Part shown: positions 56,870 through 60,912 of the stretch, piece after piece
How positions within the stretch are numbered: the first letter of the stretch is position 1
Layout of the letters: each line of letters starts with the position of its first letter
Sequence record: PX880101.1
Direction: 5' to 3' (one strand)
Source: a phage
Length of the DNA: 64,000 bases
The notes under the pieces: model-generated
Told to the model about the DNA's origin: nothing
Seen by the model: only the letters and a program-made list of their open reading frames with translations
The model's database searches: none
Position numbers and translations under genes: made by a program

Positions 56870-57424
56870 ATGAAATACTTTGTAACAAGCGACACACACT
56901 TTCTCCACCAGCGGGTCATGGAGTTTGATTCATGTCAAAAACACAGATCTCAGTATGATCACAATCTTGACAGTATGAATGCGGGAATCATCGCCGAATG
57001 GAACTCTGTTGTGTCACCTGCAGACACTGTGTTCCACTTGGGAGATATTGCGTGCACTAATGATAAGAATATCAACAACTTACTTCCAGATATTCTAAAT
57101 ATGTTGAACGGACATATTATTCTTGTTCGTGGCAACCATGACACAAGGACGACTGTCAGAATTATGAAAGAGTTCGGTCATGAGGTTGTAGATTATTACG
57201 AGCTTCGCCACAACAAGAATTTGATCTGTATGAGCCATTACCAATTTGCAAAGTGGAACAGAAAGCCTCACGGATCAGTCCAACTGTTCGGTCATGCTCA
57301 CGGAACCACACAACAGTTGTTTGGCAGGCAGCTTGATGTCGGTTGGGATGTGTGGGGGAGACTCTTACCATTAGAAGAGGCATACCGTATTGCAATGAGT
57401 TTTGCTATTGACAGCGGGGAGTAA
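56870..57424 (+). CDS. calcineurin-like metallophosphoesterase
   Basis: SDTHF, GDIA and GNHD motifs; start set at MKYFVTSDTHF rather than the upstream in-frame M inside the kinase gene. Confidence 0.6.
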   Translation: MKYFVTSDTHFLHQRVMEFDSCQKHRSQYDHNLDSMNAGIIAEWNSVVSPADTVFHLGDIACTNDKNINNLLPDILNMLNGHIILVRGNHDTRTTVRIMKEFGHEVVDYYELRHNKNLICMSHYQFAKWNRKPHGSVQLFGHAHGTTQQLFGRQLDVGWDVWGRLLPLEEAYRIAMSFAIDSGE

Positions 57425-57471
57425 TCCCTGCTATTTTAAAGAAAATTGCCACACAAGGAGAATCAGGAGAT

Positions 57472-57822
57472 ATGAAAGATGGGGATAAGCTGCTATATCT
57501 TAAAGTCCCCCTTGAAATACTGTCTATGTCAAAAGTTTTGAATGACACAACTGGAGAGGTTGTTGTTCTTGACTTGTATGACAAGATCGTATACTGCTAC
57601 CTGCACAACTGGTATAAGCTTGGAGGAAATTCACGCTTCACACCCAGCACAAGGAAAATTGCAGCAGATGTTGGGATAAAGAAAACAAAAGCAGCAGCGT
57701 GCGTTAAAACTTTAGAGTGTGCAGGGGTGGTTGAAATATCCACACAAGGGAGAGGTAAAAGATGCACATTTTCCAAAGTTTTGCCACCAGAAGAAGTTAT
57801 TCGGATGTCAACAACTGGTTAG
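57472..57822 (+). CDS. hypothetical protein, possible HTH DNA-binding
   Basis: C-terminal STRKIAADVGIKKTKAAACVKTLECAGVV resembles a helix-turn-helix; lies just upstream of the palindromic iteron array. Confidence 0.4.
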   Translation: MKDGDKLLYLKVPLEILSMSKVLNDTTGEVVVLDLYDKIVYCYLHNWYKLGGNSRFTPSTRKIAADVGIKKTKAAACVKTLECAGVVEISTQGRGKRCTFSKVLPPEEVIRMSTTG

Positions 57823-57896
57823 ACCAGTAAAAACTTAAATATCTGTACTATAAGGATTCGTATGTTTTATGTTCGCTCTAGAATAGAGGTCAGTAA

Positions 57897-57979
57897 CTGT
57901 CCGTGATACGGACACTACTGTCCGTCACGCGGACACATCTGCCCGTAATACGGACACTAACTGTCCGTGATACGGACAC
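57897..57979. repeat. four tandem ~19 bp units each containing inverted repeat GTCCGT-N-ACGGAC, ~21 bp period
   Basis: ctgtccgtgatacggacac at 57897, 57918 (variant), 57938 (variant), 57961. Confidence 0.7.
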
Positions 57980-58120
57980 ATAAAGAATATAACTAAAATA
58001 ACTAAATAATAAAAAAATAAAAGATCTAGTACTTATGGTACTAAAGTACATATACTTAACTTATGTAGAATATACCAGATCCTAAGTACCATGTTTTAAA
58101 TTTATTACTTACTATAGGTA

Positions 58121-58370
58121 GTGTCGGCCCTTCATTGGCACTCGCCTACGAGGGGCGAGATGCCGGGCCTCCATAGTGCACACATGCAGGTCTGTTAACA
58201 TGTGTGGGAGCGAAGCGATAGAGCAGGCCAAAGGCCGAGCACTAATGTGGACCACCGACGAAAGCTTGCCAGCGCCGTAAGGAGTCGGTTGAGAGCCTCC
58301 CGCGCGAGTTTGGATAAAGTTTATGTGTGGAAACGGACAATGAGGCCCCTAAATCGCTCCACAGCCATAT
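58121..58370 (+). other. GC-rich ORF-free island, candidate structured non-coding RNA
   Basis: Sharp GC-rich island without a long ORF between an AT-rich stretch and gene 58467; several local inverted repeats. Confidence 0.3.
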
Positions 58371-58466
58371 AAACTATACCAAGTAAGGCAATCGCACCAG
58401 TTCGATAGAAAAGCTCGTTACAAAGCGATACAGTGAGTTTTTCTATAACTTGAAGAGGAGGCAGCT

Positions 58467-59045
58467 ATGAGTCCACGCAAAGATGACCGTGAAAAGATTG
58501 CAAAACGTTATCAGAATGAAGAACAGATGGAGAAAACTTTCAAGTGGAAGCCAGGTTTCCAGCGTAATCATTCTAACGCTCGTGATCGTAAGCATCCGGA
58601 TAAGTGGCTAACACCGCCAAATGATGGCATACAGGTTGGTAATGAGAAGGAGCTGTCACCAGGAAAAGATGGCAACTACATTCGCACTAAGGAAGCAGGT
58701 CCAAAGGATGACAGCTATCTTGTAGATAAGGTTCTTGATGGTATTGATGTAGATGTTGACACTTCACGAAACCTTTTTCTTGGTTGGTATCGTACAGGGT
58801 TTTTCGACATCAAGGCTATTCGTCGTGTTTGTGATATTAAAAAGTCTGCCTATGATGATGACTCTCTACATCGCACTCTGAGACAATACTCAGAGAGATA
58901 CGGTCATCCAGTTATCACTCTTGACGATATTAACGAAGTGATGTATCATGCAGAGGTTGTTGCAGGTAGATTCGGTGATGCATATCTCGGTATTCTTTCT
59001 GCAAAAGATGAGGTAATGTTAAATAAAATTTACTATGAACGCTGA
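58467..59045 (+). CDS. hypothetical protein
   Basis: ORF with gaggagg RBS. Confidence 0.5.
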   Translation: MSPRKDDREKIAKRYQNEEQMEKTFKWKPGFQRNHSNARDRKHPDKWLTPPNDGIQVGNEKELSPGKDGNYIRTKEAGPKDDSYLVDKVLDGIDVDVDTSRNLFLGWYRTGFFDIKAIRRVCDIKKSAYDDDSLHRTLRQYSERYGHPVITLDDINEVMYHAEVVAGRFGDAYLGILSAKDEVMLNKIYYER

Positions 59046-59563: not shown

Positions 59564-59852
59564 GGTTGTTTTCGTGTATCATGATGAATATCCAATTTAA
59601 AGATGAATTTGATGGCTTTATCTCTGGATGCTTTGAAACAGGGTTCAGAGAAGACTGAGTTCCCCTTAGAGGGCTTGATAGTGCACCACACTTAAAATGG
59701 TAGGGGCAGCCAGCACATGACGATGTGACCCCAGCCAACCTGTAACAAGGTCGAGCCGAAGCGCGGGTAATAGGCCTCTGGTAACCCACTTGTTGGGTCT
59801 TGCTGGTCCAGGACGCTGGACAAGTCGCAGGGAATACCACCCTGCGGCGAAC

Positions 59853-60813: not shown

Positions 60814-60912
60814 GCTAGGTAAGCCCTTTGGCAAGGGCGAGGATTTTTAATCCTGAAAATAGACGAGGTAGTAGTTGAATACATAGGTGGTTCGATTCCA
60901 TCACCTAGCACC
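60814..60912 (+). tRNA. aberrant tRNA-like element (possible Lys-TTT loop) with ~29 nt insertion before the T-arm
   Basis: Perfect acceptor GCTAGGT/ACCTAGC, D-arm GCCC-TTTGGCAA-GGGC, T-loop GGTTCGATTCC, but oversized variable region and imperfect anticodon stem; no encoded CCA. Confidence 0.35.

Follow-up and report, generated by a model that had tools for sequence, protein, structure and literature searches.

A candidate replication origin in rV5-like phages of Escherichia coli: tandem dyad iterons, an AT-rich tract and a small winged-helix gene

Where and how the rV5-like phages of Escherichia coli begin to copy their DNA is the question raised by a compact locus in phage sequence record PX880101.1, of which a stretch of 64,000 nucleotides (here called the window) was analysed. 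At this locus, four tandem palindromic repeats (iterons) are situated between a small gene for a putative DNA-binding protein of the winged helix-turn-helix (wHTH) type and a very AT-rich tract. No publication on a Vequintavirinae origin or its iterons came up in a literature search, and the repeats are unmarked in the annotated records of rV5, Murica, SYGMH1, JEP1, 10C2 and phage 206. The array, the AT-rich tract and the wHTH gene probably represent a lambda-type origin, in which the initiator is reduced to its DNA-binding domain and the iterons are located just 3′ of its gene. What is proposed here is a candidate for the so far unmapped origin of rV5-like (Vequintavirus) E. coli phages, which would be of the known iteron type and served by a winged-helix initiator of its own. 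The principal features are as follows.

57408..57437, plus strand: sigma-70-type promoter-like site (TTGACA-18-TATTTT with TG), 5′ of the wHTH gene; designated P76 in the rV5 record
57472..57822, plus strand: wHTH gene, a 116-aa open reading frame (ORF) with helix-turn-helix matches; candidate origin-binding initiator, DNA-binding domain only
57898-57914, no strand: iteron 1, TGTCCG-TGATA-CGGACA (TGTCCGTGATACGGACA); missing in phage A135
57919-57935, no strand: iteron 2, TGTCCG-TCACG-CGGACA (TGTCCGTCACGCGGACA)
57940-57956, no strand: iteron 3, TGCCCG-TAATA-CGGACA (TGCCCGTAATACGGACA); one arm mismatch, TGTCCG in phage JEP1
57962-57978, no strand: iteron 4, TGTCCG-TGATA-CGGACA (TGTCCGTGATACGGACA)
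~57979-58110, no strand: AT-rich tract, candidate DNA-unwinding element; 131 bp, 80% AT, with A-tracts, two GATC and four GTAC sites

Over region 57400-58500, the sequence agrees fully with that of Escherichia phage A6-1 (100% identity) and matches rV5, Murica and over 100 further Vequintavirus genomes at 96-98%, on the basis of which the window is assigned to an rV5-like virulent myovirus of E. coli. The window is not identical to A6-1 over its whole length, and the assumption that it is identical to PQ510733 was rejected, as the two are offset at the far end and share 88% identity over one stretch. For this reason, genome-wide counts were performed on a hybrid genome, in which the window was joined to the remaining A6-1 sequence (135,100 bp, hereafter ~135 kb). 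The GC content of the genome is 44%.

The array consists of four 17-bp dyads with start-to-start spacings of 21, 21 and 22 bp. A preliminary description of this DNA had reported four tandem palindromic units about 21 bp apart, both of which points were confirmed; its repeat unit, GTCCGT-N-ACGGAC, is corrected here to the 17-bp dyad TGTCCG-N5-CGGACA. Unit 2 is imperfect at its seventh position and unit 3 at one arm position. When up to three mismatches were allowed, the dyad pattern returned eight matches in the window compared with 1.42 expected, a number reached in 0 of 100 shuffles. Beyond the four units, every dyad-like site of the hybrid genome has two or more mismatches. The half-site hexamers are not enriched elsewhere either (15 and 22 copies compared with 23 expected). 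That the array is a single site speaks against a factor controlling many promoters, which would be expected to have many sites. The array begins 75 bp past the stop codon of the wHTH gene and is therefore positioned outside it, unlike lambda-type iterons, which are found within the initiator gene.

To assess conservation, 15 relatives with wHTH proteins 86-100% identical to that of the window were aligned. Among these, variable columns account for 1 of 48 positions in the arms, compared with 4 of 20 in the 5-bp centres and, within the wHTH gene, 40 of 117 third codon positions (Fisher p = 2e-6). For example, the arms of iteron 2 are constant, whereas its centre reads TCACG, CCACG, CTACG or TAATA. 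In phage A135, an exact 21-bp deletion has removed one unit (iteron 1). The 27 nt immediately 5′ of the array exhibit a mean conservation of just 71%, and the AT-rich tract shows a mean pairwise identity of 96% (13 relatives), a value that drops to 84% for third codon positions in the adjacent gene. Because the arms are kept and the centres vary across relatives, the functional unit is taken to be TGTCCG-N5-CGGACA, comprising 6-bp arms and a 5-bp variable centre. Constant arms around an unconstrained centre are what a dimeric DNA-binding protein, rather than an RNA hairpin, typically leaves behind, and the alignment is indicative of purifying selection on both the arms and the AT-rich tract. 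Furthermore, absence of the motif from related phages, which the preliminary description had named as grounds for refutation, was not observed: the motif is present in 15 of 15 relatives, and at least one full unit (TGTCCGTCACACGGACA) occurs in a metagenomic relative with a 71% identical protein, where a second unit begins 21 bp further on and is followed by the end of the contig, the DNA around the complete unit being otherwise diverged. A 21-nt inverted repeat (57832-57852 and 58042-58062, 81% complementary) flanks the array and the first half of the AT-rich tract; it was rejected as a structure, as one clade carries changes in the left arm without matching changes on the right.

The AT-rich tract follows directly after iteron 4 and represents the most AT-rich 130-nt stretch of the hybrid genome (80%, with the runner-up at 75%). 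The ~140 bp of very AT-rich DNA previously noted downstream of the repeats is thus measured here as 131 bp, and the GTAC palindromes reported within it were located at 58029, 58038, 58046 and 58086 (four compared with 0.25 expected).

The small helix-turn-helix-like gene noted upstream of the array was found to be a genuine ORF of 116 codons. Its product matches PHROG 12838 ('replication initiation protein', E 2.5e-80), with weak matches to PHROGs 8102, 428 and 270, and is named 'replication initiation protein' by RefSeq. At the level of BLAST, the protein is confined to Vequintavirus; a protein-seeded IMG/VR search returned no relatives and a word-indexed protein search returned five near-identical clusters only. 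An exhaustive HMMER search retrieved 15 proteins (E up to 0.001), and HTH_36 and/or DUF6945 were detected in seven of the nine that were scanned. The family profile matches PDB entry 4RO3 (E 1e-12). An AlphaFold2 model based on a 20-sequence alignment, with a predicted local distance difference test score (pLDDT) of 82, reported a winged helix with an N-terminal β-hairpin and a long first helix; an earlier model based on five sequences (pLDDT 47) was discarded. Fold neighbours spanning most of the chain include the RepA_N plasmid initiators (RepA of pSK41 and pTZ2162) and the N-terminal domain of DnaD, so that the predicted fold leans towards initiators without settling the matter. The model encompasses the winged helix and short flanking elements alone, without the helicase-recruiting C-terminal domain of a lambda-type initiator. 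No terminator-like sites were found in 57300-58600, and since none precedes the next gene, the repeats and the AT-rich tract are probably transcribed by read-through from the 57408 promoter.

The genomic contexts of distant homologues of this protein (L016-L022), i.e. early-operon positions beside hairpin-rich regulatory DNA, contained no clear iteron arrays and were uninformative. Four distant homologues (P0009, P0016, P0017 and P0019) have a long, acidic C-terminal tail with ...APF, ...PPF or ...ENF as its last residues, similar to the tail through which SSB binds its partners; no such tail is present in the window protein. Divergent regulatory regions of 0.7 kb upstream of distant homologues (L019, 3950-4600; L022, 3900-4600) are dense in short GC hairpins with 3-nt loops (GCCGCTTAGCGGC, GCGCTTGCGC and GCGCATATGCGC), 130-290 bp apart.

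Comparison with sister genera of the Vequintavirinae provided a further view of the module. Following synteny from the neighbouring phosphoesterase gene ended at rearranged loci of 4MG, Ro1 and phi92, but revealed the wHTH and repeat module, which is located at the divergent region of 4MG and Ro1. A 105-aa wHTH homologue is encoded by Seunavirus (4MG and KE22), Mydovirus Mydo and Henunavirus pEp_SNUABM_01 (hhalign probability 98%, E 1e-14; tblastn), at the divergent early intergenic region and beside NAD-salvage genes. The start of its gene adjoins two 18-bp repeats (AGCCTAtaCTCAAATTGA) located 23 bp apart, which are followed by an A-rich tract with two to three GATC sites and 'GATCT plus T-run' elements and, beyond it, by consensus-like back-to-back promoter sites. 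In both 4MG and Ro1, a consensus-like rightward promoter ending in TAGAAT is positioned at the edge of the AT-rich tract.

Raoultella phage Ro1, which belongs to the same genus as Mydo, encodes a different small wHTH protein (PHROG 186 'DnaD-like helicase loader', and 8102) and carries different, palindromic repeats of the ATTCCCGATTAGGAAT type in three copies, 24-59 bp apart. As Ro1 and Mydo differ in both gene and repeats and yet are ~97% identical from the middle of the AT-rich tract onwards, the Mydovirus wHTH gene and repeats are exchanged as one cassette, as expected of a cognate pair. Beside the swapped cassette, Ro1 (L028, 1512-2075) contains a gene that fuses a winged helix to a T5orf172/MUG113 nuclease-like domain, and its product could be a homing endonuclease that mobilised the cassette. 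Relative to the repeats, the gene is oriented differently in Vequintavirus than in the remaining genera, whereas the repeats adjoin the AT-rich tract in all of them. This constant adjacency despite the change in orientation suits an origin, which needs it, better than an autoregulatory operator, which does not.

To explore the occurrence of the motif elsewhere, IMG/VR and bacterial genomes were searched for exact matches to two adjacent TGTCCG-N5-CGGACA dyads. Tandem arrays were identified in 18 unrelated viral contigs (GC content 40-70%), with three to seven copies in 17 of these and two in L041, and with a period of mostly 20-25 bp (most commonly 22). In 17 of the 18 contigs, the array is located within an ORF that extends over 160-590 codons from stop to stop (the sole such ORF in L039); in L042, it is spanned by a 65-codon ORF only and was treated as intergenic. 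Array-covering ORFs were scanned in eight contigs, six of which (L036, L037, L038, L040, L043 and L048) matched initiator PHROGs named 'replication initiation protein', 'replication initiation O-like' or 'DnaD-like helicase loader'; those of L035 and L041 had no PHROG match. The ORFs of L037 and L038 also exceed the Pfam HTH_36 cut-off. The array follows the wHTH-coding part and precedes a lower-GC stretch in L036, L043, L045, L048 and L051, and is positioned 3′-terminally within a short gene in the L037/L038 group. By analogy, such initiator-embedded arrays correspond to the lambda arrangement, in which the origin is located inside the initiator gene. In the 169-kb contig L042, the array is flanked by DNA of 18-32% GC and located directly 3′ of a 120-aa ORF that matches PHROGs 186 and 270, a layout equal to that of the window. 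Alignment of the window family with array-bearing ORFs by hhalign gave probabilities of 80% for L038, 26% for L036 and 1%, i.e. undetectable, for L042.

The preliminary description had leaned towards an origin on the layout of the locus. This reading now has independent support from the uniqueness of the site in the genome, the adjoining most AT-rich DNA, the initiator-family protein (by sequence and in part by fold), the co-variation of gene and repeats beside a persistent AT/GATC tract, and recurrence of the dyad arrays in unrelated phages, mostly within O-like initiator ORFs where these were scanned.

Three further features are located within or beyond the AT-rich tract.

58014..58026, minus strand: oriC-type 13-mer GATCTTTTATTTT, which agrees at every position with the 13-mer consensus of E. 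coli oriC, GATCTnTTnTTTT
58064..58071, plus strand: possible -10 element TGTAGAAT, read from the sequence; no good -35, and no promoter called at this position by the scan
58111..58345, plus strand: GC-rich non-coding element of 235 nt, conserved and G-skewed, directly 3′ of the AT-rich tract

The match to GATCTnTTnTTTT is the sole one in the genome on both strands (0.12 expected from base composition) and is single, without tandem copies. In E. coli oriC, three 13-mers are arranged in tandem. By eye, the 'GATCT plus T-run' elements in the AT-rich tracts of 4MG, Mydo, Ro1 and pEp_SNUABM_01 are similar to GATCTTTTATTTT. No perfect DnaA box is present in 57300-58600, where three 9-mers with one mismatch were found (57480, 57736 and 58309), and the accompanying site scan detected no IHF consensus.

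The GC-rich element (58-60% GC, compared with 44% for the genome) is strongly conserved across the genus in the alignment, and it is uncertain whether it forms part of the origin. The two most GC-rich 150-nt stretches of the genome (~60%) fall in 58111-58345 and 59650-59850, both of which are non-coding and positioned between the wHTH gene and the tRNA cluster; neither has a match in Rfam. When 58111-58345 was analysed as RNA, the fold z-score was about -1.7 to -1.9 with no compensatory pairs, and RNAalifold provided no support. Inspection by eye of sister-genus intergenic regions revealed nothing resembling this element. 'ORF78' of rV5, which is annotated within 58111-58345, is disrupted by a 1-nt deletion in phage 206.

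Under the proposed mechanism, the early gene 57472-57822 would yield the 116-aa winged-helix protein, dimers of which would occupy the four TGTCCG-N5-CGGACA iterons, with the two-turn spacing placing them all on one face of the DNA. The resulting nucleoprotein complex would strain the adjoining 131-bp tract, predicted to be the least stable DNA of the genome, and so aid its opening, assisted by transcription from the promoter of the wHTH gene across the whole element. The T7-gp4-like primase-helicase and the DNA polymerase of the phage, both annotated in the A6-1 record, would then load onto the opened DNA. Binding of the repeats by the protein, melting of the tract, the mode of helicase recruitment and any role of transcription or of the GC-rich element are what we infer from the features described above. 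A more far-reaching version assumes that a minimal initiator with only a DNA-binding domain is unable to recruit the helicase by itself, so that opening and priming would proceed via the iteron complex, read-through transcription and 58111-58345 as an R-loop or primer-RNA region (a hybrid of lambda, T7/T4 and ColE1), and that TGTCCG-N5-CGGACA is a 'universal' iteron of divergent HTH_36-like initiators in phages of hosts with 40-70% GC; this combination is considered improbable.

Several observations weigh against an origin. The protein scores 24.5 bits against Pfam HTH_36 (cut-off 25) and slightly under the gathering cut-off of DUF6945 (PF22182), PHROG names are annotations rather than tests, and the winged-helix fold is equally near to the repressors MarR, LexA and CodY. 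A comparison with lambda O by hhalign gave no match, and the window protein has no counterpart of the loader-contacting C-terminal half of lambda O, which leaves helicase recruitment unexplained. Phages with a T7-like replisome can, moreover, initiate from promoters without an initiator protein. The 13-mer was tested only after the sequence had been seen, and hence represents a lead. In terms of position, an origin is favoured in that the array is located 1.5 kb from the point of divergent transcription, where the rV5 authors noted a skew change (PMC3606486), and in that the cumulative GC skew reaches a local minimum at about 55-56 kb of the window; against it, this minimum coincides with the strand switch and not with the array. 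In the same paper, the origin was sought by skew, the skew changes were ascribed to the direction of transcription and the outcome was inconclusive (PMC3606486). Finally, the motif is not exclusive to origins, as the dyad pair was found at 37 loci in bacterial genomes (L053-L089), 26 of which hold two copies only, and a quick search gave a credible initiator-like ORF at only 2 of the 37 (L059 and L060). The two-copy loci, most often 20 bp apart and chiefly from high-GC Myxococcota (Kofleriaceae) and Burkholderiales, may reflect a separate, operator-like use of the dyad; near the pairs spaced by exactly 20 bp, no initiator-like ORF was detected. Several apparent homologue matches at bacterial loci were discarded, as they were wrong-frame translations of the repeats themselves.

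Such operator-like use bears on the most serious alternative, according to which dimers of a wHTH regulator coat the sites and thereby block or modulate read-through from 57408, or control a weak promoter in the AT-rich tract. The fold and the sequence neighbours in PDB include repressors (MarR/SlyA, LexA and CodY), depositors frequently label the protein a 'putative transcriptional regulator', and the array is positioned within a transcription unit with no terminator ahead of the next gene. In 4MG and Ro1, moreover, the repeats separate the wHTH gene from a consensus-like promoter site, a position that would make self-repression possible, and the two-copy bacterial dyads are more operator-like. 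However, no promoter-like site was found to overlap the array by a consensus scan, which weak or non-sigma-70 promoters could escape, and the gene's own promoter is without a half-site. Similarly, the orientation of repeats to gene varies between genera while the adjacency of repeats and AT-rich tract is constant, and an operator leaves unexplained both the conservation of the genome's most AT-rich DNA beside the array and the dyad arrays amid O-like initiator genes of other phages. The operator half of the earlier 'origin or operator array' proposal is thereby weakened and now appears unlikely, whereas the origin half stands; the two roles can, by analogy with plasmid Rep proteins, coexist.

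The repeats might instead serve DNA handling, either as the pac site of a headful phage bound by a small terminase-like protein, or as an anchoring or partition-like site. Lambda Nu1, a winged-helix protein that binds repeated R sites, provides a precedent, and the large terminase gene is located ~5 kb downstream. Some pac site must exist, given that vequintaviruses are reported to be circularly permuted and to package by the headful mechanism (PMC8407724, PMC13211470). Four independent assemblies (L007 at 3519, L008 at 1839, L015 at 1392, and GenBank MG065672) terminate in or at the array, which could reflect copy-number heterogeneity, palindrome-related coverage loss or genuine DNA ends; contigs ending at short repeats are, however, a common assembly artefact. 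The 116-aa protein shows no similarity to small-terminase families in Pfam or PHROGs, its gene has an early-looking sigma-70-type promoter and is situated among early metabolic genes, and the homologous module of the sister genera is found beside NAD-salvage genes in the divergent early region. As the arrays of other phages are, in addition, embedded in replication-initiator-like genes, a packaging or DNA-handling role is regarded as very improbable. Least probable of all are hairpins in the read-through transcript (e.g. for processing, stability or protein binding), for although the region is probably transcribed from the 57408 promoter and each unit could form a stem of 6-7 bp, the C-A mismatches fall on different strands (plus in unit 3, minus in unit 2), position-7 substitutions in relatives are without compensating change, Rfam gives no match, and a dyad whose 6-bp arms are conserved while its 5-bp centre is free to vary is characteristic of binding by a protein dimer to DNA.

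Two observations concern other parts of the window. In the rV5 record, the large terminase (L001, 8859 onward; ~62.9-64.0 kb of the window) is annotated as three joined pieces, ORF64ABC, which suggests intervening sequences in this gene. The tRNA cluster includes a 99-nt tRNA-like gene (60814-60912), to which ARAGORN assigns a four-base anticodon (atcc) and which is recorded as 'tRNA-OTHER' in Murica.

Phages of the rV5 type (Vequintavirinae) are frequent in therapy and biocontrol collections. A concrete candidate of 230 bp, with a named putative binding protein, renders the question of their origin directly testable, and would offer a handle for engineering in the form of origin-bearing plasmids amplified on infection and of replication-defective mutants. 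Furthermore, a single iteron motif ties a small gene labelled 'transcriptional regulator' or 'hypothetical' in several genera to initiator genes of uncultured phages, a link that could improve the annotation of origins and initiators across phage genomes.

Among known systems, ori-lambda shares with the candidate origin four tandem dyad iterons, each 17-19 bp long and spaced by about two helical turns (read in lambda, as a control, as four 18-bp dyads spaced by 20, 24 and 23 bp and followed by an A-rich tract), an A/T-rich tract immediately on one side of the iterons, a neighbouring (candidate) initiator gene that encodes a winged-helix domain, and reading of the element from an upstream early promoter, which is a predicted one in the window. 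Conversely, the iterons of lambda are positioned inside gene O, whereas those of the window are found 3′ of the stop codon. Lambda O comprises 299 aa and recruits P-DnaB through its C-terminal domain, whereas the window protein stops after the winged helix at 116 aa and has no detectable sequence similarity to O. In addition, the AT-rich tract of the window is ~3x longer, and the rV5-like phage has its own primase-helicase.

The iteron origins of plasmids P1, F, R6K, pSC101 and RK2 likewise combine tandem repeats in ~21-22 bp phasing with an adjoining AT-rich unwinding element. Plasmid iterons measure 17-22 bp, with the rep gene outside them; they are asymmetric and bound by Rep monomers, usually in the company of DnaA boxes, whereas the units of the window are dyads and 57300-58600 lacks a perfect DnaA box.

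The array-bearing HTH_36-type initiator genes of uncultured phages (L036, L037/L038, L040, L043/L045/L048/L051 and L042) differ from the window in that most hold the array within a longer ORF of 160-430 aa and in that their similarity to the window protein is weak. They nevertheless share with it an identical iteron consensus, a similar period, the order of wHTH-coding DNA, array and lower-GC tract, and a PHROG neighbourhood consisting of 270, 391, 428 and 8102. In L042, this likeness extends to the split layout, in which a small wHTH gene is followed by an intergenic array in very AT-rich DNA.

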